36,622 bases of DNA, taken from IMG/VR virus record IMGVR_UViG_2531839531_000013, positions 1 through 36,622 of that record; one strand, given 5' to 3'. Positions 40 to 36,622 of this stretch are shown here, in pieces. The notes beneath the pieces are model-generated. The model did no database searches. It was given only the letters and a program-made list of their open reading frames with translations, and was not told where the DNA came from. The position numbers and the translations under genes are program-made. This DNA comes from a virus (Duplodnaviria > Heunggongvirae > Uroviricota > Caudoviricetes). Within the stretch, counting starts at the first letter, position 1; the number at the start of each line of letters is the position of its first letter.

Positions 40-402
40 GGGGCTGATTCTGGATTCGACGGGATTTGCGAAACCCAAGGTGCATGCCGAGGGGCGGTTG
101 GCCTCGTAAAAAGCCGCAAAAAATAGTCGCAAACGACGAAAACTACGCTTTAGCAGCTTAATAACCTGCTTAGAGCCCTCTCTCCCTAGCCTCCGCTCTT
201 AGGACGGGGATCAAGAGAGGTCAAACCCAAAAGAGATCGCGTGGAAGCCCTGCCTGGGGTTGAAGCGTTAAAACTTAATCAGGCTAGTTTGTTAGTGGCG
301 TGTCCGTCCGCAGCTGGCAAGCGAATGTAAAGACTGACTAAGCATGTAGTACCGAGGATGTAGGAATTTCGGACGCGGGTTCAACTCCCGCCAGCTCCAC
401 CA
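40..402 (+). ncRNA. ssrA: tmRNA (SsrA), complete 363 nt
   Basis: Begins GGGGCTGATTCTGGATTCGAC and ends GGTTCAACTCCCGCCAGCTCCACCA (tRNA-Ala-like acceptor and T arm). Internal tag ORF GCAAACGACGAAAACTACGCTTTAGCAGCTTAA = ANDENYALAA* at 129-161. Recognised as the E. coli-type ssrA. Confidence 0.97.
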
Positions 403-510: not shown

Positions 511-1284
511 TTACAACTTAAAGAGTTTCGCTTGCCCTGGATTAACAGCTTCGACGTAGTTTTTGACCCCTATTCTGTGCGGCTCATAATTGCTTGAATA
601 GAAATCAATCAGGAAGTCACTCATTTTCTGAGATGTGACTTTCATAACTCCCTTACTCAAAGTTAAATTAAACACGCTAATCTTTGACGATGGTGCCTGA
701 GTTTTACTCATGTTGGCTTGATAACCAGATTTACGCATTGCCACTAGTGCTTCGTCGTAAGCCGCTTGTAATTGGGCCAAATCGTTTGACGAGATGATCA
801 CATCATCCATAAACACACTTAGCTTGAGATCATGATGTTTGTTCAATCGGCGTAGTAAGCTACCAAAATAACTTTTATCTAAGCAGAGGGTTGCAAGTAT
901 TGGAGATTGAACAAAACCAAAAGGGAGGACATGCTTATGTGGACTATGGGACAAGTTTCTTACAGTTGAAAATGTTGAGATTTCCCGCGCTTGAGAATAG
1001 GTGAAGTAGCTCTTTAGATCACGGGTGATACGACTACGGCTCGTTGACTGAAAAAATTGTTTAATATCAACAACGGCAAAAAAATCACTTTTTAAGTGTA
1101 ATCTGGCAGCTTTAAGATGCCCACCAGTTCTTAGATGGTAAAAATAGAGTGGCGGAATCCACTTGTTTCTGACATCCTGAAGTATCTTCCCTCCGACTTT
1201 ACGTGCCTCAACGCTTGGGACATAAACCCAAACCCCGGGCTTAATCTCAAATTTATCTTCCCACCTTTGAACTTCTATTGTCAT
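511..1284 (-). CDS. Compact reverse transcriptase-like protein (257 aa), cargo
   Basis: RT palm motifs occur in the correct order: FFAVVDIKQFFQS (motif A, Asp73), LPFGFVQSPILATL (motif B'), and FMDD (motif C, residues 158-161, codons 802-813). There is a retron-like AARLH just upstream of motif A. ATG at 1282-1284, with no own SD; the start lies inside the upstream ORF. Confidence 0.8.
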   Translation of the reverse strand: MTIEVQRWEDKFEIKPGVWVYVPSVEARKVGGKILQDVRNKWIPPLYFYHLRTGGHLKAARLHLKSDFFAVVDIKQFFQSTSRSRITRDLKSYFTYSQAREISTFSTVRNLSHSPHKHVLPFGFVQSPILATLCLDKSYFGSLLRRLNKHHDLKLSVFMDDVIISSNDLAQLQAAYDEALVAMRKSGYQANMSKTQAPSSKISVFNLTLSKGVMKVTSQKMSDFLIDFYSSNYEPHRIGVKNYVEAVNPGQAKLFKL

Positions 1285-1426
1285 GAGTTAAATTGTTGTA
1301 GTTGAAGGCCATGTTAAGAACGGCGTAAACCGCACCAACTAAGCCAACAAACGCGGTTGCGCATTTGAGCATAGCGGTGATCAGTTCAACACGCGCCTTA
1401 ACTAAGCCAAGTTCGTTTGTATCCAT
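1253..1426 (-). CDS. Small predicted membrane protein (57 aa from the second ATG), overlapping the RT start by 32 nt
   Basis: GGAGGA (1434-1439) lies 7 nt upstream of ATG 1426. Product MDTNELGLVKARVELITAMLKCATAFVGLVGAVYAVLNMAFNYNNLTHDNRSSKVGR has one hydrophobic helix (about ITAML...LNMAF) and a polar, basic tail. Confidence 0.45.
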   Translation of the reverse strand: MDTNELGLVKARVELITAMLKCATAFVGLVGAVYAVLNMAFNYNNLTHDNRSSKVGR

Positions 1427-1446
1427 AACTTGTTCCTCCATAGATA

Positions 1447-1623
1447 CCTGACGTCTCTTAGCGCAAGCGCATGGCCCTAACTAAATAAAAAATAACAACC
1501 AGTTAGCCCAGAAAGCTTAACAAGTCGGCGTCCGATTACATGGCAATCAGGTAATCGGTCCGCAGTCGCAAAGCGACAAACTACATATCTACGGAGTGGG
1601 GATAAATCCCCGCTAACGTCAGG
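1447..1623 (-). ncRNA. Candidate structured non-coding RNA upstream of the RT module
   Basis: On the minus strand, CCUGACGU+UAGCG (1623-1611) pairs with CGCUA-agag-ACGUCAGG (1463-1447). This helix encloses hairpins at 1598-1611 (GGGGA/UCCCC), 1565-1577 (GUCGC/GCGAC), 1532-1558 (CCGAUUAC/GUAAUCGG) and 1477-1506 (CUAACU/AGUUAG with an 18-nt U-rich loop). Confidence 0.4.
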
Positions 1624-1687
1624 CATTGTTAATTTAACCTCAACTTATAGAAAAGTATAGTTTTAAATCATGTAGTTATGTCGCCAT

Positions 1688-1906
1688 TTAAATCGGCAAA
1701 CCCACCTGTTTAAATTTATGAGGATGCGGCTGAACCGGATTTGACTCTTTTGGCGTTGCAATCGAACGAACAAAAGTTTCATGGGTAACAAAAGTATGGC
1801 TGCAGTTAATGTTCTGGCACTGGTTGTAACGCTCTTTGGTCAATGAAGATACCTGAAAACTGCTGCGAGTATGGGCGGCACTTCCACACAGTGGGCAAAT
1901 CATCAT
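1688..1906 (-). CDS. ogr: Ogr/B-family zinc-finger late transcription activator
   Basis: MMICPLCGSAAHTRSS...ERYNQCQNINCSHTF is the CxxC...CxxxxC pattern and ~72-aa size of P2 Ogr / 186 B. The start is taken at the internal Met doublet rather than the ORF-track start 1939. Confidence 0.85.
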   Translation of the reverse strand: MMICPLCGSAAHTRSSFQVSSLTKERYNQCQNINCSHTFVTHETFVRSIATPKESNPVQPHPHKFKQVGLPI

Positions 1907-1996
1907 TTTTCGAGTTCTCCCCATTTTTGCTAAATTCACAATAATGATATCGCATTATTCCATTTTTCAAACTTAAAAGTTCTCCATTGTGAAGAA

Positions 1997-9624: not shown

Positions 9625-9954
9625 GCCAGATATGTCATTCAGCGAGGAGCTAATGCCAATGGTGCGTGGATACGCTGGTCAGATGGTGCAATAGAAGTCT
9701 TTGGAACGGGGGGTTCTAATGATAATGGACTGGCTAAAGTCGTTTATCCAATTGCGCTACCTAAGCTTTCACGTTTTATCAGCATAGCGGAAAGAATAGG
9801 AACGGATTATGGGGGCACATCTAATAATGTTCACGTTTCAATGATCGTGGATGACCAGGTCACTAATACCGGTTTTTATGTCCGCTGCCAGATGTACGAC
9901 GGAACACCATCAACAAGTGCTTTTTCCTGGAGGGTTTATTGTGCGCCTGTTTAA
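9625..9954 (+). CDS. Silent alternative tail-fibre C-terminal cassette (Hv', 109 codons, no start of its own)
   Basis: The frame reads ...FLNV GLGE ARYVIQRGANANG... through the crossover site. H reads ...LTYL GLGE GSALPV... through its own site, so inversion would give an in-frame fusion after H residue 354. Confidence 0.7.
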   Translation, partial: ARYVIQRGANANGAWIRWSDGAIEVFGTGGSNDNGLAKVVYPIALPKLSRFISIAERIGTDYGGTSNNVHVSMIVDDQVTNTGFYVRCQMYDGTPSTSAFSWRVYCAPV

Positions 9955-10138
9955 TCCTGTTACTTTGACTGAAGTAATCCCCGGTCTTCATGACGTGACC
10001 GGGGCTGTTGAATTACCAGAAGATAACTGGTTTTTTACTGCATCTGAAATCCCTGAAGGAATGGAAATATCTGTTAACGAGAAGGGAGAACCCATTCTGA
10101 TTGAGATTAAACCGTCTCAGGAGGAACTGGCCAGATGA
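9941..10138 (+). CDS. Alternative tail-fibre assembly protein fragment (G', 65 codons, GTG start)
   Basis: GGAGGG lies 6 nt upstream of GTG 9941. The ORF starts 14 nt before the Hv' stop and converges on, and overlaps, the 3' end of G (10107-10138). It lacks the conserved C-terminal module present in G. Confidence 0.5.
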   Translation: MRLFNPVTLTEVIPGLHDVTGAVELPEDNWFFTASEIPEGMEISVNEKGEPILIEIKPSQEELAR

Positions 10139-10712
10139 CATCTGGCGCGGTGCTGGTATCTGTTGCCATCACCGCGTCAGTGTAATCCAGCACGGCGTTA
10201 AGTCGGGTGTTTTCTGCCTGCGTCAGCTTCCGCCCGGCCTGCAATTTCAGTTGAATCAGACTAATGGAAACCATTGCAGCATCAATCAGCGACTGCCGCT
10301 GTGTTTCTGCCATGTCTACTGCTGCTCTATGCTGTGCCTCGGTATCCGTCACCCATTTCTCACCATCCCATTTATCGTATGGCGTTAACGGGGCGATAGT
10401 GGTTGTCTTTTCAGGGTAATCACCCGGAGCTGTGATTTCTTTTGATTCTCCTGTTTCGGTGCTATAGACGATTTCACCGCGATGGTCTGGCACATATTCC
10501 CATGAGTTAAAATCTGCAGAACGGCAAATTGCATAACCAGCTTTATATGAGCCAGGAGCATCTAAACAGGAACATGCCGGGATACCGACACCCACAGCAA
10601 GATATTCGGTTGATGTGGAAATATATTCTCGTGTTTCACCATCATAATTATAAACAGTAATATCTCCCGCCTTTGTGGCGATGAGTTCCTTATTTAATAT
10701 AGCTTTATCCAT
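10107..10712 (-). CDS. G: Tail fibre assembly chaperone gpG
   Basis: 201 aa with an ATGA overlap on the H stop. The C-terminal ...LQAGRKLTQAENTRLNAVLDYTDAV...WPVPP motif is typical of Tfa/U-family chaperones. Confidence 0.85.
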   Translation of the reverse strand: MDKAILNKELIATKAGDITVYNYDGETREYISTSTEYLAVGVGIPACSCLDAPGSYKAGYAICRSADFNSWEYVPDHRGEIVYSTETGESKEITAPGDYPEKTTTIAPLTPYDKWDGEKWVTDTEAQHRAAVDMAETQRQSLIDAAMVSISLIQLKLQAGRKLTQAENTRLNAVLDYTDAVMATDTSTAPDVIWPVPPETV

Positions 10713-12271
10713 CAGGCAGCCCTCACGATATAATTAAAGGCAATGTTACGGGGTCGATTTTCGTTTGCAGTTGGAACAATTCTTGAAGCATCAAGGCCAA
10801 TCACTTTTGGGTAAACACTGCCCTCGGACCTTTCTGTCACCATACTTCTGACTAAGGAGAAATAACTATTGTTCGTTGAGGGGTTCAAAGGCACCACTGC
10901 CCCCTTAAACGAGCCTACTGATTCCCATATTGAATAATTTTCGGTGTTTACAGTCTTGAACTCACCATAGATATTACGTATGGCATCGCCCTGAGCGGAT
11001 AATATTGTTCTCCCCGCATCCGCACTACGCCCATCATCCCAGCCACGAATAAATTCACCGCGTAAATCAGGCAATTTATTTGTCGGGTAAGCCTTTGCCA
11101 GTTCCGGGTATTCTTCAGCAGAAAAAGCCGCACCATTGCATTTCAGCCAGCCTGTCGGCGGAGTGGCGGAAGGCCACGGAACAGGCACACCGACAGGTAA
11201 TGCAGAGCCTTCTCCCAAACCAAGGTATGTGAGAAGACCAGCTACATCCTTTCCACTCAAATTGGTAAGCGTATTGTCCAGCGGTTGTTTACCTGCCAGC
11301 GCATTAAGCATTGTCGTGGCAAAGTTCGGATCATTCCCCAGTGCCGCCGCCAGTTCGTTCAGTGTATCCAGTGCAGCAGGTGCAGAACCCACCATTCCTG
11401 CAATCGCCGATTTCACAAAAGCCGTAGTGGCAATCTGTGTATTGTTGACCGACTGCGCCGCCGTGGGGGCTGTTGGCGTTCCGGTGAGTGCCGGACTCGA
11501 CAACGGTGCTTTTAGTGCCAGCGCATTGTTAATGGTGGTACTGAAATTCGGATCATTGTTAATGGCTGCGGCTATTTCTTTCAGCGTGTCCAGCGTGGCT
11601 GGCGCACCATTAATAAGGGCCGTCAGTGCCGCCTGTACAAACGCAGTGGTCGCAACCTGCGTGGTATTATTCCCCGCCGCTGGCGTTGGCGCTTTGGGGG
11701 TTCCGGTAAATGTCGGGCTGGCTTTTGGCGCGTACTGTGAATGCGGGTCCGGTGCGGCAAGATGTTTTGCCATCTGATCATCCGCGTAAACCTTCAGCTC
11801 CAGTGCCTTGTCATCCACATACTTGCGGGTTGCCAGCACTACAGCAGGGTCGATTTTCAGGGTGATATTGTCCGTGCTGCTGGTAATCAGCACCATGCGC
11901 ACGGTCTGAGTGCGCCCGCTACCTTCAGCCAGTTGCGGCTTATAGCTTTCCGGGCAGTTGCCCACGGCAATCAATGCCCCGGACTCATCAAACAAGCCCA
12001 CTTCACGTATCCACCAACCGCCCTCGTTTTCAGGGATCACCTGTTCGGCAATAATCTGGCTGCTGTTCTGCGGGTCGATATAAAGCATATTCAGCGCAGC
12101 CCGGCGTTTCTCATTTACCAGTGCCGTCTGCTTTGCGTCTGGCGTTGGCAATACTCCACCGCCATCGCCCACCGCCATATGGGTAATTTTTAGCGGCACA
12201 CCGAGCGCGGCGGCGCTGGCAAGTTTCGCCGCGCCAATATCCGTCAGCAGGGTATAAAATTTTGTGCTCAT
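10712..12271 (-). CDS. H: Tail fibre protein gpH (current orientation: constant part + Hv)
   Basis: 519 aa with a conserved P2 H-like N-terminus. It contains two tandem ~75-aa repeats (NTTQVATTAFV...DPNF / NNTQIATTAFV...DPNF) and a C-terminal receptor-binding part after GLGE (residues 351-354). Confidence 0.9.
   Translation of the reverse strand: MSTKFYTLLTDIGAAKLASAAALGVPLKITHMAVGDGGGVLPTPDAKQTALVNEKRRAALNMLYIDPQNSSQIIAEQVIPENEGGWWIREVGLFDESGALIAVGNCPESYKPQLAEGSGRTQTVRMVLITSSTDNITLKIDPAVVLATRKYVDDKALELKVYADDQMAKHLAAPDPHSQYAPKASPTFTGTPKAPTPAAGNNTTQVATTAFVQAALTALINGAPATLDTLKEIAAAINNDPNFSTTINNALALKAPLSSPALTGTPTAPTAAQSVNNTQIATTAFVKSAIAGMVGSAPAALDTLNELAAALGNDPNFATTMLNALAGKQPLDNTLTNLSGKDVAGLLTYLGLGEGSALPVGVPVPWPSATPPTGWLKCNGAAFSAEEYPELAKAYPTNKLPDLRGEFIRGWDDGRSADAGRTILSAQGDAIRNIYGEFKTVNTENYSIWESVGSFKGAVVPLNPSTNNSYFSLVRSMVTERSEGSVYPKVIGLDASRIVPTANENRPRNIAFNYIVRAA
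11210..11235. repeat. Invertase crossover site (26 bp), right, inside H
   Basis: TTCTCCCAAACC AA GGTATGTGAGAA, an inverted partner of 9599-9624. Confidence 0.8.
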
Positions 12272-23521: not shown

Positions 23522-24220
23522 TTATTTGTTTCTTCTTTGTTCACGCCTTGTCTTGGCTTCGATAAGGCGTTGAGGTTCAGTGTAAAGCCGTTCTAAAAAA
23601 AGATAGGTAAAATCTTCAAGATCCTCAGCAGCAGCTTTATCCAAAATACCTTCATGCGCTCCATCATTTCCGTCATCTTTAACGCATTCAGCTAGTTCCC
23701 TTAAAGCTTCAGGCAGTAGATGATTATCAAATAACCACTCCATTCTTAACCCTAGGCTTCTCCTTATTTTTTGCGCAGGCCCTTGCTCCCCATCAGGAAG
23801 AAGTCCTTTTGTGGCATAATCAAGGCAAAGCCTAAACATGGTTGCTGCTGCATTATAACAACCTATAGCCAAACATTTCGCCCCTTCCTCATATGCACTA
23901 TTGATATGCTCAGGTAAGAACTCTGGTGGCTCCTCTACTGCTAAGTCTGCCGGTGATATAGGCCTAACAACCTCTGCAACTTCCTTTAAGCCGAATATTC
24001 CACTTTCCCAATTATAGCCATCTAAAGTTTTATTTTTCGTTAAAGGTCTGCAAAGAAACATTGTCGTTTTATGACACTCTCGGCAAACACAATAGACCTC
24101 GTATTCGTATGTTTTACCCCCGCCCAATGCATTGTAAACCCTAGTGCAATTCAGCCCATTAACATCAAACGCTATTTTTTGTGATCCACATCGTGGACAG
24201 TCATCCACTAACATAACCAT
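23522..24220 (-). CDS. Zinc-ribbon + DUF4145-like domain protein (cargo, 232 aa)
   Basis: The N-terminus CPRCGS...x34...CVCRECHK has four Cys. The C-terminal LGLRMEWLFDNHLLPEALRELAECVKDDGNDGAHEG...AEDLEDFTYLFLERLY matches my memory of the DUF4145 (PF13643) signature. The gene is AT-rich and has a GGGAGGAG SD. Confidence 0.7.
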   Translation of the reverse strand: MVMLVDDCPRCGSQKIAFDVNGLNCTRVYNALGGGKTYEYEVYCVCRECHKTTMFLCRPLTKNKTLDGYNWESGIFGLKEVAEVVRPISPADLAVEEPPEFLPEHINSAYEEGAKCLAIGCYNAAATMFRLCLDYATKGLLPDGEQGPAQKIRRSLGLRMEWLFDNHLLPEALRELAECVKDDGNDGAHEGILDKAAAEDLEDFTYLFLERLYTEPQRLIEAKTRREQRRNK

Positions 24221-24288
24221 GTCAATTACTCCTCCCTATGAAAAAAATGAGTTGAAAAATTGAATATTCACGACTTAAAAAGCTAGCC

Positions 24289-24317
24289 TATTTAACACCA
24301 TAATTTCATTAATTCAA
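24289..24317 (-). promoter_or_regulatory. Putative sigma70 promoter of the ZnR-DUF4145 gene
   Basis: On the minus strand: TTGAAT (24317-24312), a 17-nt spacer, then TAAATA (24294-24289). It begins 14 bp from the cos core. Confidence 0.45.
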
Positions 24318-24330
24318 CCATGAGCGCGCG

Positions 24331-24349
24331 CTCGTATCCCCGCCACGCC
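24331..24349. other. Probable cos cohesive-end site
   Basis: The reverse complement GGCGTGGCGGGGATACGAG shares its first 13 nt with the 19-nt 186 cos end as I remember it (GGCGTGGCGGGGAAAGCAT; P2 GGCGAGGCGGGGAAAGCAC). It sits in a GC-rich patch at the expected position beyond Q. Confidence 0.55.
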
Positions 24350-24390
24350 TGCCCGCTTTGTGTAGTGGTTTTCATGCACCTGCATGACAT

Positions 24391-24418
24391 AAGCAAAAGC
24401 CCGCCAGCTCTGGCGGGC
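24391..24418 (-). terminator. Rho-independent terminator downstream of the HNH gene
   Basis: On the minus strand: GCCCGCCAG-ag-CTGGCGGGC followed by TTTTGCTT. Confidence 0.6.
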
Positions 24419-24531
24419 ATCAGCAAAAACGATCCTCAAACGATCATGCGATTTCATGCGGCATAGACATGCGTTGGCAAAAATGTACGAAATACTCAGC
24501 TTATAGGAAATGGTCTTTTTCCAACCTCCAG

Positions 24532-25251
24532 TTAGCCAAAGCAGAAACCAATATTGCAATTTGAAACTCCACAGTTGTGAAATTGATGTGGACCTACTCT
24601 TAGCTTGTGTTCGTCTCCTACAATCCGAGTCCCCTTAACCAACATATCTAATCTTTCCACAATCAATCTTTCAGGCGCATCAACTTTAATAATTAAACGA
24701 GGACCTTTCCTTTTTTCTATAATAGTTATTCTAGGACCGACAACCTGAACATCCCAATGCCTTGCACTACAAACCCACTCATTCTTAATTAATTCAAGAT
24801 TAACAATACCTTGACTATCGTAAAATTTACCCGAAATAAGAAAAGCATTATTTTCTTTTTCAATGGTTAACAATGGCTCATTTTGAAACATTATTGGTAC
24901 AGTACAGGATTCAAACGTCGCACCACCAAATATTATTGTTGGATGCCTATCAGAAAAGTCCAATATATCGGCCACATTCCCTTTTTGTAAGGCTGCAGGA
25001 GATTCCATTGCTTTAATTATTTTCTCTTTAGAGTAAAGACGTTTCGTTACTTTCGCATGGCACGTAGGACAAAGTAGTGCTATTGCATTTGGAGAGTGCT
25101 CCTTTGCATCAGCGTATGTGGGAATTACATGCTCATACTCAACAATGGGAGAAGCACAAACAACGCAACCGAAGCCACAGCGCTGCCTTACCTCCAGTTT
25201 TACAGGTTCAGGAATTGTTCTAGATAACCCATGCTTGTTAATAGTTGTCAT
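24532..25251 (-). CDS. HNH endonuclease domain protein with unknown C-terminal domain (cargo, 239 aa)
   Basis: CGFGCVVC...VEYEHVIP...HSPNAIALLCPTCHAK carries the HNH/zinc motifs. The C-terminal ~150 aa are beta-rich with no motif I recognise. The gene is AT-rich and occupies the P2 old/tin position. Confidence 0.8.
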   Translation of the reverse strand: MTTINKHGLSRTIPEPVKLEVRQRCGFGCVVCASPIVEYEHVIPTYADAKEHSPNAIALLCPTCHAKVTKRLYSKEKIIKAMESPAALQKGNVADILDFSDRHPTIIFGGATFESCTVPIMFQNEPLLTIEKENNAFLISGKFYDSQGIVNLELIKNEWVCSARHWDVQVVGPRITIIEKRKGPRLIIKVDAPERLIVERLDMLVKGTRIVGDEHKLRVGPHQFHNCGVSNCNIGFCFG

Positions 25252-31806: not shown

Positions 31807-32823
31807 ATGACTGTCAGAAAACAGCCAAACGGCAAATGGTTGTGTGAGTGCTATCCCAATGGACGCAATGGCAAGCGCGTGCGTAAGCAATTTGCTACGA
31901 AAGGAGAAGCCATTGCTTTTGAAAGCTTCACAATGGAAGAAGTGAATAAAAAACCGTGGCTAGGTGAAAAGGATGATCGGCGACGCCTATCAGAATTAAT
32001 TGAGCTTTGGTATTCCCTGTATGGCCAGACACTCGCAGACCCCAAGCGCCTCATGGCGAAACTTAGAATTATCTGTAATGGTCTAGGCGACCCCATCGCC
32101 TCAGAACTGACAGCCGGTGACTTTACAAAATACCGCGAAGCACGGTTAAAAGGCGACGTTCGTAACGAAGACGGCACACTAATGTCGCCAGTAAAACCAC
32201 GCACGGTGAATCTTGAGCAACGTAACCTATCATCGGTTTTCGGCACATTGAAAAAACTAGGCCACTGGTCAGCACCAAATCCTCTCGCCGGGCTGCCAAC
32301 ATTTAAAATCGCTGAGGGGGAACTGGCGTTCCTGACCTCGGAAGAAATTAAACGTCTGCTAGATGCCTGCGCTGATTCTCAAAACCCCAGTCTGCTTTTG
32401 ATTGCAAAAATATGCCTGGCCACCGGCGCACGCTGGAGTGAAGCCGAAAACCTGCAGGGCCATCAGTTATCTAAATACCGCATCACTTATACCAAGACGA
32501 AGGGCAAGAAAAACCGCACCGTGCCGATATCTCAAGATCTGTATGACGAACTCCCCAAGAACAGAGGGAAGCTATTCACCCCGTGCAGAAAAGCCTTTGA
32601 ACGGGCAGTAAAGCGAGCTGGCATCGAGCTGCCAGAGGGCCAATGCACTCACGTGCTACGTCATACATTCGCCAGTCATTTTATGATGAATGGCGGAAAC
32701 ATACTGGTCCTACGCGATATTCTGGGCCATGCCGATATAAAAATGACGATGATTTACGCCCACTTTTCGCCGGATCATCTTGAAGATGCAGTTACTAAAA
32801 ACCCTTTATGCAACTTAAGATAG
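31807..32823 (+). CDS. int: Tyrosine integrase (P2/186 family)
   Basis: 338 aa with ATGARWSEA (Arg), HVLRHTFASH (HxxR) and LGHADIKMTMIYAH (His/Tyr). Confidence 0.9.
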   Translation: MTVRKQPNGKWLCECYPNGRNGKRVRKQFATKGEAIAFESFTMEEVNKKPWLGEKDDRRRLSELIELWYSLYGQTLADPKRLMAKLRIICNGLGDPIASELTAGDFTKYREARLKGDVRNEDGTLMSPVKPRTVNLEQRNLSSVFGTLKKLGHWSAPNPLAGLPTFKIAEGELAFLTSEEIKRLLDACADSQNPSLLLIAKICLATGARWSEAENLQGHQLSKYRITYTKTKGKKNRTVPISQDLYDELPKNRGKLFTPCRKAFERAVKRAGIELPEGQCTHVLRHTFASHFMMNGGNILVLRDILGHADIKMTMIYAHFSPDHLEDAVTKNPLCNLR

Positions 32824-35380: not shown

Positions 35381-36622
35381 ATGGCAAGACAAACCAAACC
35401 TCTATCCGTTAAAGAAATAGAATCAGCCAAACCCAAGGAGGCGGACTACGTTCTCTATGATGGCGATGGCCTTGAGCTACTCATTAAATCCAGCGGGAGT
35501 AAAATCTGGCAGTTTCGCTACATTCGCCCTGTCACCAAGAAACGAGCAAAGAAGAGCATAGGCTCCTACCCGTCAGTTACCCTTGCCGATGCCAGAAACT
35601 ACCGTGCAGAGTCCCGCTCACTACTGGCTAAACAGATCGATCCGCAGGAACATCAGCAAGAACAATTGCGCAGTTCGCTGGAAGCCAAAACCAACACTTT
35701 CCAACTCGTAGCTGAACGTTGGTGGAATGTGAAGAAAGCCAGTGTGACAGAGGACTATGCGGAAGATATCTGGCGCTCTCTTGAAAGAGACGTCTTTCCT
35801 GCGATTGGCGACGTTAGCGTTACAGATATTAAAGCTCATACACTGGTTCAGGCCGTACAACCGGTTCAGGCCAGAGGAGCACTGGAAACTGTTCGTCGCC
35901 TGTGCCAACGTATTAATGAGGTCATGATCTATGCCCAGAACACAGGGCTGATTGATGCTGTTCCCAGCGTTAATATCGGTAAAGCCTTCGAGAAGCCTCA
36001 GAAAAAGAACATGCCCAGCATTCGACCGGATCAGCTACCTCAGTTAATGCAGACGATGCGAACAGCCAGCATTAGCCTTTCCACACGCTGCCTGTTCATG
36101 TGGCAACTTCTTACTATTACCCGCCCTGCCGAAGCGGCTGAAGCTCTCTGGGAAGAGGTAGACATAGAAGCGCGAGAGTGGAAGATTCCTGCAGCACGCA
36201 TGAAAATGAACCGCGACCATACTGTTCCATTGTCAGATGAAGCAATTGCGATACTAGAGATGATGAAGCCGTTAAGTGGAAATCGAGAATTTATCTTTCC
36301 CAGCCGCATCAAGCCAAACCAGCCGATGAACAGTCAGACCGTAAACGCATCGCTAAAACGCGCAGGTTTTGGTGGGGTGCTCGTTTCACACGGCCTGCGA
36401 TCTATCGCCAGTACAGCCCTTAATGAGCAGGGATTTCCACCTGATGTTATTGAGGCTGCACTTGCTCATGTGGATAAGAATGAGGTTCGTCGTGCGTATA
36501 ACCGTAGTGATTATCTTGAGCAGCGACGGCCTATGATGCAGTGGTGGGCTGATTTTGTGATGGCTGCAGATCACGGTAGTATGATTGAAGGAGGGATAAA
36601 GGCAATGCGGTTAGTTGGATGA
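35381..36622 (+). CDS. intA: P4-family tyrosine integrase (CP4-57 IntA-like)
   Basis: 413 aa. MARQTKPL...LYDGDGL.LLIKSSGSK.WQFRY N-terminus, with TITRPAEAA, HGLRSIAST and AHVDKNEVRRAYNRSDY catalytic motifs. Closely resembles K-12 IntA as I remember it. Confidence 0.93.
   Translation: MARQTKPLSVKEIESAKPKEADYVLYDGDGLELLIKSSGSKIWQFRYIRPVTKKRAKKSIGSYPSVTLADARNYRAESRSLLAKQIDPQEHQQEQLRSSLEAKTNTFQLVAERWWNVKKASVTEDYAEDIWRSLERDVFPAIGDVSVTDIKAHTLVQAVQPVQARGALETVRRLCQRINEVMIYAQNTGLIDAVPSVNIGKAFEKPQKKNMPSIRPDQLPQLMQTMRTASISLSTRCLFMWQLLTITRPAEAAEALWEEVDIEAREWKIPAARMKMNRDHTVPLSDEAIAILEMMKPLSGNREFIFPSRIKPNQPMNSQTVNASLKRAGFGGVLVSHGLRSIASTALNEQGFPPDVIEAALAHVDKNEVRRAYNRSDYLEQRRPMMQWWADFVMAADHGSMIEGGIKAMRLVG

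Follow-up and report, generated by a model that had tools for sequence, protein, structure and literature searches.

Between ogr and ssrA, at the right end of a 186/P2-like prophage, lies a compact block of three parts, all read from the minus strand: a structured non-coding RNA (ncRNA), a small hydrophobic protein (SP) and a 257-aa reverse transcriptase (RT). The prophage is contained in a stretch of 36,622 nucleotides from a virus of the Caudoviricetes (IMG/VR record IMGVR_UViG_2531839531_000013), which in its full length is called the window below. This block is very probably a retron-type module of RT, ncRNA and SP. In its organisation it is a retron with Type VI-like logic that does without the helix-turn-helix (HTH) protein, and it belongs to a family not previously catalogued. 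The same three parts recur together in dozens of unrelated genomes, with covariation, and therefore the module is no chance assembly; the first-pass annotation of the window, which had proposed a real module of structured RNA, small hydrophobic open reading frame (ORF) and compact RT, was right in this. It was wrong in taking the architecture to be unrecognised, as the order ncRNA, small protein, (HTH), RT is the layout of the Type VI retrons (Mestre 2020, PMC7736814). The three parts lie in the window as follows:

511-1284, minus strand: compact retron-clade RT of 257 aa without a Shine-Dalgarno (SD) sequence of its own, starting 32 nt inside the SP frame (Pfam RVT_1, profiles, AlphaFold2 (AF2) model)
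1253-1426, minus strand: SP of 57 aa, with a basic/polar N-terminus, one hydrophobic helix, a near-invariant Asn-Tyr (NY) pair and a variable tail (conservation of the ORF)
1436-1626, minus strand: retron-type (msr/msd-like) ncRNA of ~190 nt, beginning with the 5' end of inverted repeat a1 and ending with the SD-pairing arm; the SP coding sequence is contiguous with it (covariance model)

The ORF call on the window gives the RT frame as above and the small ORF as 1253-1441 (minus strand; 62 aa from the first ATG). The 57-aa form starts at the ATG at 1426, which is preceded by the SD sequence GGAGG at 1439-1435, and it is this version (174 nt) that PGAP annotates, under the name hypothetical protein (WP_000380485.1); the RT is listed as 'reverse transcriptase domain-containing protein'. 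The stop codon of SP lies 32 nt within the RT ORF. The layout as initially read, with an RT start 32 nt inside a 57-aa ORF that has an SD and an RT that has none, thus holds.

The reverse transcriptase and its affiliation

The RT matches Pfam RVT_1 (E=1.8e-21), and D73 of motif A, Q126-S127-P128 of motif B and the catalytic pair D160-D161 are invariant among 32 homologues, which secures the identity first assigned to it. A single-sequence search yielded 72 homologues down to 33% identity, nearly all of 244-270 aa. An exhaustive profile search covering 1.84 billion representatives gave 285 clusters at E <= 1e-30 (the family comprises ~285 clusters at 50% identity); the best 150 of these 285 all score above 225 bits and almost all measure ~245-270 aa, with some shorter, apparently partial entries. 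Among 79 loci in species-representative genomes (Gamma-, Beta- and Alphaproteobacteria), nearly all have the frame closed by a stop codon shortly before the RT start. Since the family is uniform in length and carries this in-frame stop, the RT, judged by its sequence, is no truncated remnant of a longer gene, an alternative raised at the outset. The accompanying statement that it is shorter than any RT family was too strong: the RT is uniformly compact, but the PADLOC profiles RT_VI and RT_X span 279 and 272 positions. The RT cluster of P0001 also holds many shorter members (99, 71, 147, 193 aa) in Escherichia coli, Klebsiella and Salmonella Typhi, and the gene may frequently be disrupted, or split by annotation, in some genomes.

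The protein is a single RT domain according to both Pfam and its AF2 model, which shows a full, confident fingers-palm-thumb fold (pLDDT 95.0, pTM 0.89). In a Foldseek search the top 17 structural neighbours from the PDB are all retron RTs (TMq 0.65-0.76), with G2L4, group II, DRT9 and DGR RTs ranking behind them and DRT2 also among the weaker neighbours. The strongest PADLOC profiles on the window RT are RT_VI (62.7 bits) and Cas-associated RT (59.3 bits), followed by retron types I-B, IX and II-A; the best matches in a profile search of the PDB are Ec86, Kva2, Eco8 and Ec78, all near 50 bits, and RT residues 13-251 align with residues 59-296 of Ec86. RT_VI aligns end to end more often than any other profile (in P0013, for example, residues 18-243 on positions 49-271 of 279), which suggests a loose kinship of the RT with Type VI. 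The group II intron model TIGR04416 reaches 23.3 bits against a cutoff of 300, and an Rfam scan found no intron RNA in the module. On its profile and structural matches, then, the RT is of the retron clade and is captured by no catalogued retron type; the retron matches themselves are weak and no existing profile covers it, in keeping with the early view that it lies outside the well-characterised RT families. The UG/Abi-DRT, group II intron, DGR and CRISPR-associated classes were rejected on profile scores and architecture.

The first of these classes merits a fuller comparison. Were the RT a non-retron DRT or UG/Abi enzyme, the ncRNA would template concatemeric or homopolymeric complementary DNA (cDNA) rather than branched multicopy single-stranded DNA, and the a1/a2-like helix would be a scaffold for RT binding. 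The lack of the retron signatures NAxxH and VTG, the presence of the ncRNA-templated DRT2 and DRT9 RTs among the weaker structural neighbours, and the weak UG17, UG33 and Drt3a matches of some members fit such an origin. Yet the UG and DRT profiles always fall below the retron profiles, retron RTs fill the leading structural ranks, the additional domains common in UG/Abi RTs (usually >400 aa) are missing from the family, and a closing helix followed by an invariant AG, as found in the ncRNA, is the priming geometry of retrons. We therefore consider this assignment very unlikely.

The structured RNA upstream of the small protein

The 274 nt upstream of the small ORF fold with a minimum free energy of -80.1 kcal/mol, against -66.1 +/- 4.75 kcal/mol for shuffled sequences (z = -2.95; 1 of 200 shuffles as good), so that the densely paired leader noted early on is real. 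It is structured but also more than a leader: with its inverted repeats a1 and a2 and its invariant AG, the upstream RNA is, by comparative sequence analysis, a retron msr/msd-type ncRNA. Its plan was derived from 40 non-redundant loci anchored on conserved motifs. From 5' to 3', the family has a1 (7-10 nt); (G)AUAGG or UUAGC with the invariant AG; a variable hairpin; an anti-SD segment; the hairpin GUCACnnnGUGAY; a further variable hairpin; UUGGUU; the hairpin GCGCnnnGCGC; UAGG plus 2-3 nt; a2; 0-6 nt; the SD-containing arm; 7-12 nt; and the SP AUG. The elements in the window are:

1632-1637, minus strand: putative -10 element TTAAAT, 5 nt upstream of a1, weak in the window (family scan)
1615-1626, minus strand: inverted repeat a1, AUGCCUGACGUU, pairing with 1444-1455
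1613-1614, minus strand: invariant AG immediately 3' of a1, with G1613 as candidate 2'-OH priming (branching) guanosine (alignment)
1598-1611, minus strand: hairpin SL1, GGGGAUUUAUCCCC, of varying sequence in the family (a hairpin stands at the same place in aligned loci)
1586-1596, minus strand: anti-SD segment CUCCGUAGAUA, pairing with 1436-1446
1565-1577, minus strand: conserved hairpin HP1, GUCGCuuuGCGAC, consensus GUCACnnnGUGAY (98% paired)
1495-1558, minus strand: variable central hairpins, the presumptive msd (cDNA template stem-loop), kept as hairpin and not in sequence
1479-1484, minus strand: conserved UU(G/A)GUU motif, UUAGUU in the window (T141, T142 and T146 invariant)
1461-1470, minus strand: conserved hairpin HP2, GCGCuuGCGC, followed by UA(A/G)G (99% paired)
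1444-1455, minus strand: inverted repeat a2, GACGUCAGGUAU, pairing with a1
1435-1446, minus strand: SD-side arm UAUCUAUGGAG, which holds the SP SD GGAGG and pairs with the anti-SD

In an alignment of 59 sequences, pairing in the a1:a2 helix reaches 98.3% (slid controls, ~33%), and 6 of its 7 pairs show compensatory changes. A MAFFT alignment of the 40 loci gave compensatory changes in 7 of 8 a1:a2 pairs, and 94.9% pairing over the whole tested structure against 30-36% when slid. The AG after a1 (alignment A15 and G16; A1614-G1613 in the window) is invariant in 40/40, in the context UUAGC or AUAGG; this is where canonical retrons (Ec86, for example) have their priming G. In HP1 the fourth pair changes from A-U to G-C in a compensatory manner in the window and in locus L001; HP2 is essentially invariant and hence carries no covariation information. 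The hairpin of the central region has a median length of 46 nt (range 35-102; median z = -1.9), with two hairpins in enterobacterial members including the window. Retron msd stems likewise keep a hairpin while varying in sequence.

The covariance model R1 matches the window at 1419-1627 (minus strand; 66.7 bits, E=2e-13). Over a scan of 627 kb from 80 sources it gave exactly one match per locus in 61, always just upstream of SP and on the RT strand, and 21 of these 61 loci had not been used in building the model. R1 also matches Klebsiella loci. An Rfam search assigned the ncRNA to no family in the window or in four other loci. A -10-like hexamer (at least 4 of 6 positions matching, with A2 and T6 present) stands 5-8 nt upstream of a1 in 22/40 members, against 9/40 at a control position, and some members have near-consensus promoters (TTGACC-16-TATAAT in L007; TTGACA-17-TATGAT in L026). 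The ncRNA is probably transcribed from a promoter of its own; in the window a consensus promoter scan found nothing upstream of a1, and family-wide support for the -10 element is moderate.

Pairing at the Shine-Dalgarno sequence of SP

Immediately 5' of HP1, the anti-SD segment can base-pair with the purine-rich stretch that holds the SD and follows a2 directly on its 3' side (CUCCGUAGAUA and UAUCUAUGGAG in the window). This helix has at least 7 bp in 52 of 59 distinct sequences (median 9 bp); in 50 of the 59 an SD-like purine tract lies in its 3' arm, and the start codon follows the arm after 7-12 nt. Cognate arms pair at 8.05 and non-cognate arms at 5.60, and the cognate mean was reached in 0 of 20000 permutations. 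The arms themselves differ widely in sequence (CCUCAUC/GAUGAGG; CUCCAUU/AAUGGAG; CCUCUAUUC/GAAUAGAGG; CCUUUGACAU/AUGUCAAAGG), and for that reason the conserved pairing amounts to covariation. The 'strong SD' initially ascribed to the small ORF is therefore present as GGAGG, but it is base-paired to the ncRNA by a covarying helix, as a result of which SP is probably gated in translation rather than freely expressed. The order a1 < anti-SD < a2 < SD implies a pseudoknot or alternative states, and the covarying, crossing helices suggest a compact RNA switch linking cDNA priming to translation.

Two further pairings were noted in this region. The window and L001 have an insertion of ~20 nt between anti-SD and HP1, part of which, UGUAGUUUGU (1572-1585), is complementary to ACAAGUUAUG (1424-1433; both minus strand); the latter segment spans the SP start codon, and the pairing may occlude the AUG in addition to the anti-SD helix or in its place, as a trait specific to the enterobacterial prophage lineage. 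A direct repeat in the style of Retron-Vpa2, that is, a copy of the anti-SD in the msd, reaches 7 nt or more in 7 of 55 sequences; the rate in non-cognate pairs is 3%. Such repeats of a locus's own anti-SD, 7-9 nt long and located in the variable msd hairpin, were seen in Xanthomonas (L037, L042 and L065, where the repeat is 9 nt) and Pseudomonas (L029, L031), one example being CUCUAUUCG, and they recall the repeats proposed to let Vpa2 cDNA open the riboregulator. As a general feature of the family this device was dropped: it is weak, lineage-restricted and absent in the window.

The small protein

Of the 79 loci, 73 have a small ORF that overlaps the start of the RT. Trimmed to the start codon that follows the SD arm, the SPs measure 39-93 aa, mostly 40-60, and share one plan: a basic N-terminus (often MKKF), ~25 hydrophobic residues, NY, and a variable tail encoded in the overlap. 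The SP of the window has no match in Pfam, PADLOC or NCBIfam. NY is found in 45 of 48 SPs, and the codon for Tyr (TAC 28, TAT 17) varies synonymously, Asn being mostly AAC (41/45), so that selection on SP acts at least partly at the level of the protein. The ncRNA motif UU(G/A)GUU (1479-1484) is in all loci complementary to AACUA(C/U), the NY codons (~1299-1304). We rejected UUGGUU:AACUAC as a base-pairing, as both elements are near-invariant, which precludes a covariation test, and the synonymous variation favours selection on the protein. The original description of a membrane ORF is plausible, as 35 of 48 SPs have a KD19 value of at least 1.6, sufficient for spanning a membrane, but most SPs carry 1-3 charges in the helix.

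Translation of the RT appears, from the gene arrangement, to be coupled to that of SP: the two frames overlap in the window, and in lineages of Klebsiella, Serratia and Pantoea they are joined in frame into one protein of 302-309 aa. The Klebsiella fusion is seen at the DNA level as the ncRNA followed by a single ORF next to umuDC, and its product is listed in 7,802 blocks of the assembly collection index. In the AF2 model of this fusion, residues 3-36 form one long helix (pLDDT 57-73), the linker around NY is disordered and the RT core is confident. The constitutive fusion in Klebsiella is an argument that a tethered SP can be without acute toxicity. In K. pneumoniae CP128442.1 (L083:3785-4909), and likewise in L082 and L084, the 302-aa fusion sits between umuDC and the SRAP/yedK gene; in L082 a second, unrelated RT gene (494 aa) lies just upstream of umuD, and on that account the umuDC spot may be a variable hotspot.

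These fusions also lend themselves to a quite different view of SP, as a non-toxic subunit that serves the structure or the targeting of the RT (as its membrane tether or an extension of its N-terminus, for example), with the anti-SD helix providing negative autoregulation of the SP-RT operon by the RT-ncRNA particle and the effector, or another purpose, to be sought elsewhere. Natural SP-RT fusions in thousands of assemblies are what one would expect of such a subunit, as is an RT that lacks its own SD and always overlaps SP. The group II intron RT LtrA, the binding of which occludes its own ribosome-binding site (RBS), offers a precedent for the regulation. Against this, all characterised retrons have a toxic effector, for which SP is the sole candidate here; Type VI has toxic SPs that are comparable in size and hydrophobicity; and in the fusion model the linker is floppy and SP is not packed on the RT. 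We regard a non-toxic SP as unlikely.

Distribution and genomic surroundings

The block is found in full in 28 of 5426 complete E. coli genomes; 13 Klebsiella phage records have it, 99.5% identical, at the end of the genome; and the RT cluster includes >900 Klebsiella contigs as well as S. Typhi CT18. Leader, small ORF and RT are conserved as a set, SP being present in 73/79 loci and R1 in 61/80 sources; a P2-like phage context was found in only 3 of 79. Surroundings are heterogeneous: some loci lie between housekeeping genes (gyrB, tgt, queG, metE, thyA), and others adjoin mobile or defence-like genes (AAA_13, MORC-like ATPase, SNF2-PLD helicase, MobA, Mu transposase, integrase). An all-against-all comparison of ORFs of at least 60 aa within 3 kb of 53 loci found no conserved neighbour; the sole cluster of neighbouring ORFs covers 7 loci and varies in position and orientation. 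An HTH gene was found in none of these 53 loci, and the direct overlap of SP with the RT leaves no room for an HTH or any other gene between them. In Marinobacter algicola (L005:7190-7482) domains of a group II intron (RF02001, 129.6 bits; RF01998) lie ~2.4 kb downstream of the module, to which they are probably unrelated.

Patchy and scattered contexts of this kind, together with the position of the window's copy in a prophage beside the late-gene activator, might be taken to indicate a selfish retroelement or a function in the phage life cycle (priming, control of lysogeny) instead of defence. Such an origin sits badly with the rarity of P2-like contexts, with one copy per locus and no integrase or endonuclease partner, and with the absence of the block from most P2-like prophages (28 of 5426 E. 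coli genomes carry it); we think it extremely improbable.

Proposed working of the module

From the analysis above we lean, with some reserve, towards reading the retron-type module as an anti-phage suicide switch resembling Type VI but working without an HTH repressor. Whether it acts in defence by abortive infection with SP as the effector we judge evenly poised. The RT would prime from G1613 and copy the region 5' of a2 (HP2, UUAGUU and the variable hairpins) into a cDNA of ~100 nt. In the uninfected cell the RT-ncRNA(-cDNA) particle would hold the SD occluded, so that little SP and little further RT are made. Phage infection would perturb the state of the cDNA or of the ribonucleoprotein, for instance through phage recombination or anti-RecBCD functions; the SD would open, SP would be translated and would damage the cell, probably at the membrane, and the infection would abort. 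In this way the prophage would protect its lysogen. The direction of the switch, in which the RT-RNA particle closes the SD and infection opens it, is a guess on our part. A more specific proposal, which we advance tentatively and hold slightly less probable than not, is that of a fourteenth type of retron, the smallest self-contained one (~1.2 kb), in which a ~250-aa RT in place of an HTH antitoxin restrains a one-helix toxin, and crossing helices couple the state of reverse transcription to the translation of toxin and RT.

Several results weigh against these readings. With respect to the RT, the best NCBIfam match, retron_St85_RT, stays at 49.5 bits where the cutoff is 235, and the remaining retron models fall below this score; on the PADLOC profiles ten diverse members score 40-75 bits, with RT_VI on top in three and I-B, II-A or Cas-associated RT in others. 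The retron signatures are replaced: Ec86 NATPH aligns over A-[ALV]-x-x-H, and VTG over (V/A)-F-N (F205 and N206 invariant), and of the equation of AARLH with retron NAxxH made in the first-pass annotation only the His survives. With respect to the RNA, a1:a2 and anti-SD:SD cross, so that they must form a pseudoknot or alternate. Since the RT is coupled or fused to SP, occlusion of the SD should also shut off the RT, which complicates a simple scheme in which cDNA derepresses a toxin; for the same reason the anti-SD helix can just as naturally be read as a device of negative autoregulation. With respect to SP, its helix usually carries 1-3 charged residues; its constitutive fusion to the RT in thousands of Klebsiella genomes is hard to square with strong toxicity; and the AF2 fusion model, itself of only moderate confidence, gives no confident docking of SP on the RT. 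Lastly, both characterised Type VI systems depend on a Cro/C1-type HTH protein, which is absent near the module.

Comparison with Type VI and other retrons

Type VI retrons were described with a clade-3 RT, a Cro/C1 HTH protein and small helical auxiliary proteins (75-79 aa), no ncRNA being found at the time; their HTH is that of cluster 2_1 (91-110 aa) and lies upstream of the RT or overlaps it (Mestre 2020, PMC7736814). In Retron-Vpa2 a single 'hybrid RNA' (hyRNA) comprises the msr-msd together with the coding sequence of SP, and both HTH and RT bind this RNA (Zhang et al. 2025, 10.1101/2025.10.22.683967). In Retron-Sen3, single-stranded DNA and SP are constitutive, the HTH is the antitoxin and inhibition of RecBCD is the trigger (Garcia-Rodriguez et al. 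2026, 10.64898/2026.04.27.721009). In both, the SP toxins are embedded in a structured RNA with a sequestered RBS; the two published mechanisms disagree and both hinge on the HTH (10.1101/2025.10.22.683967; 10.64898/2026.04.27.721009). Our literature search found nothing relevant on an HTH-less form, on retrons in P2-like phages or on 'hyRNA'.

The module shares with the Type VI retrons (Retron-Vpa2, Retron-Eco12, Retron-Sen3) the order of ncRNA, small hydrophobic helical protein and short RT; the sequestration of the SP RBS in an RNA fold; the retron-like terminal inverted repeats of that RNA; and RT_VI as the best PADLOC profile for the window RT. It differs from them in the weak and inconsistent similarity of its RT; in an SP of 40-60 aa with one helix and the NY motif, against 75-79 aa and three helices in described SPs of the cl2075 type; in the coupling or fusion of RT to SP; and in the SD, which pairs just 3' of the first msr-like hairpin and across a1:a2. 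The SP clusters described for Type VI are cl2075, cl2760, cl3272 and cl3897.

The resemblance is close enough that the family might be a divergent Type VI sub-lineage that has lost its HTH, with another component, perhaps the RT itself, in the role of the HTH; this is a rival in classification only and not in mechanism. It would account for the rank of RT_VI, which is the top PADLOC match of the window RT and of the best-scoring members and often aligns near end to end, and for the common order and sequestered RBS. In addition, ~22% of catalogued Type VI entries have no HTH, and Type VI RTs score lowest among retron RTs on general retron profile hidden Markov models (HMMs). RT_VI, however, reaches only 40-75 bits and is exceeded by another profile in 7 of the 10 diverse members; 12 accessions of the family are absent from the published 292-sequence tree of Type VI/IV/V RTs; the SPs have the single helix and shorter length given above in place of three helices; and an HTH was seen in 0/53 loci. 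We give a Type VI sub-lineage that merely lost its HTH appreciable weight while considering it rather unlikely; the family may be a sister lineage of Type VI or may lie deep within it.

Ec86 (Retron-Eco1, type II-A) is alike in that a1/a2 close the ncRNA, in the AG right after a1 and its UUAGC context, and in a variable central stem-loop, and the two RTs share one fold (Foldseek rank 1, TMq 0.73). The present RT is without ~45 N-terminal and ~25 C-terminal residues of Ec86 and has altered NAxxH and VTG motifs, and its candidate effector is a 57-aa peptide between ncRNA and RT, with translation apparently gated by RNA, rather than a large enzyme. Ec48 (Retron-Eco6, type IV), which belongs to retron RT clade 3 along with types V and VI, is likewise a retron with a membrane-type effector; that effector is larger, has two transmembrane segments and lies downstream of the RT, and no SD sequestration has been described for it. 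No type IV profile was among the PADLOC matches listed, and no specific similarity to Ec48 was detected.

Outside the retrons, the toxins of type I toxin-antitoxin systems (Hok, TisB) are also short hydrophobic peptides of one helix, the translation of which is blocked by RNA pairing at the SD. The resemblance is one of working only: searches of Pfam, PADLOC and NCBIfam gave no sequence similarity to toxins of the Hok/TisB type, and in the module the occluding RNA acts in cis and is part of the RT template, with no antisense RNA gene evident. Abi-P2 and other RT cargo of P2 (Odegrip 2006; Rousset 2022 hotspots) are comparable as accessory RT cargo of P2-family prophages, but Abi-P2 is a UG/Abi-type RT of about twice the size, and the module is at the ogr-att position and not at the portal/cos-end hotspot.

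Present annotation misses the family. NCBI records the RT only as a 'reverse transcriptase domain-containing protein' and SP as a 'hypothetical protein', the retron models of PADLOC and NCBIfam score it far below the level of a family, and a 2026 retron census applied a general-HMM cutoff of 160 bits, at which many Type VI RTs, and many of the reference RTs with the weakest scores, are already lost. Yet the family has a wide distribution in Proteobacteria and is present in S. Typhi and in very many clinical genomes of Klebsiella. As a natural HTH-less counterpart of Type VI it could show what restrains the small toxin and what reverse transcription adds; because both of the disagreeing Type VI mechanisms hinge on the HTH, it permits a direct test of toxin restraint. 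A retron RT of ~250 aa with an ncRNA of ~190 nt would also be attractive for retron-based genome editing, if cDNA is made.

The prophage and its other cargo

On either side the module is bounded by the following genes:

1688-1939, minus strand: ogr/Delta late activator, outside the module (PF04606, 6.7e-22)
40-402, plus strand: ssrA (tmRNA) gene, the attachment site of the prophage (Rfam search, 295.8 bits)

These matches agree with the early placement of the module as cargo between ogr and the ssrA att site. The block had also been called AT-rich, and its GC content is indeed 0.39-0.46 across 451-1950 against 0.54-0.60 past 2100, in the tail genes; but ogr itself is just as AT-rich, so that the trait is not peculiar to the RT module. 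A query joining the att side to the ogr side, as in an empty site, was covered to at least 80% in one place in 0 of 1904 E. coli records, and its best match was another occupied site.

The closest E. coli relative of the prophage is NZ_CM125675.1 (L081), with 98.4-99.4% identity outside an insertion of IS1203. The insertion sequence, which the window lacks, lies in the tail-fibre/invertase region of L081 (26167-27380, against window 9626-11033) and is the sole large difference. At 23522-25251 (minus strand) the window encodes a DUF4145 protein (232 aa; weak PADLOC PD-T7-4 match, 1.2e-6) and an HNH endonuclease (239 aa), which sit between the replication/DinI genes and the portal gene. As this is the classical P2 accessory hotspot, the pair may be a second defence cargo of the same prophage. 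Past the prophage integrase (31807-32823), the segment 33202-36622 holds an anti-phage dCTP deaminase (578 aa; PADLOC dCTPase, 483.6 bits), and beyond it, on that side of the prophage, a further tyrosine integrase at 35381-36622; together they point to another integrative island placed in tandem, which would adjoin the prophage on the side of its integrase (attL) and not on that of ssrA.

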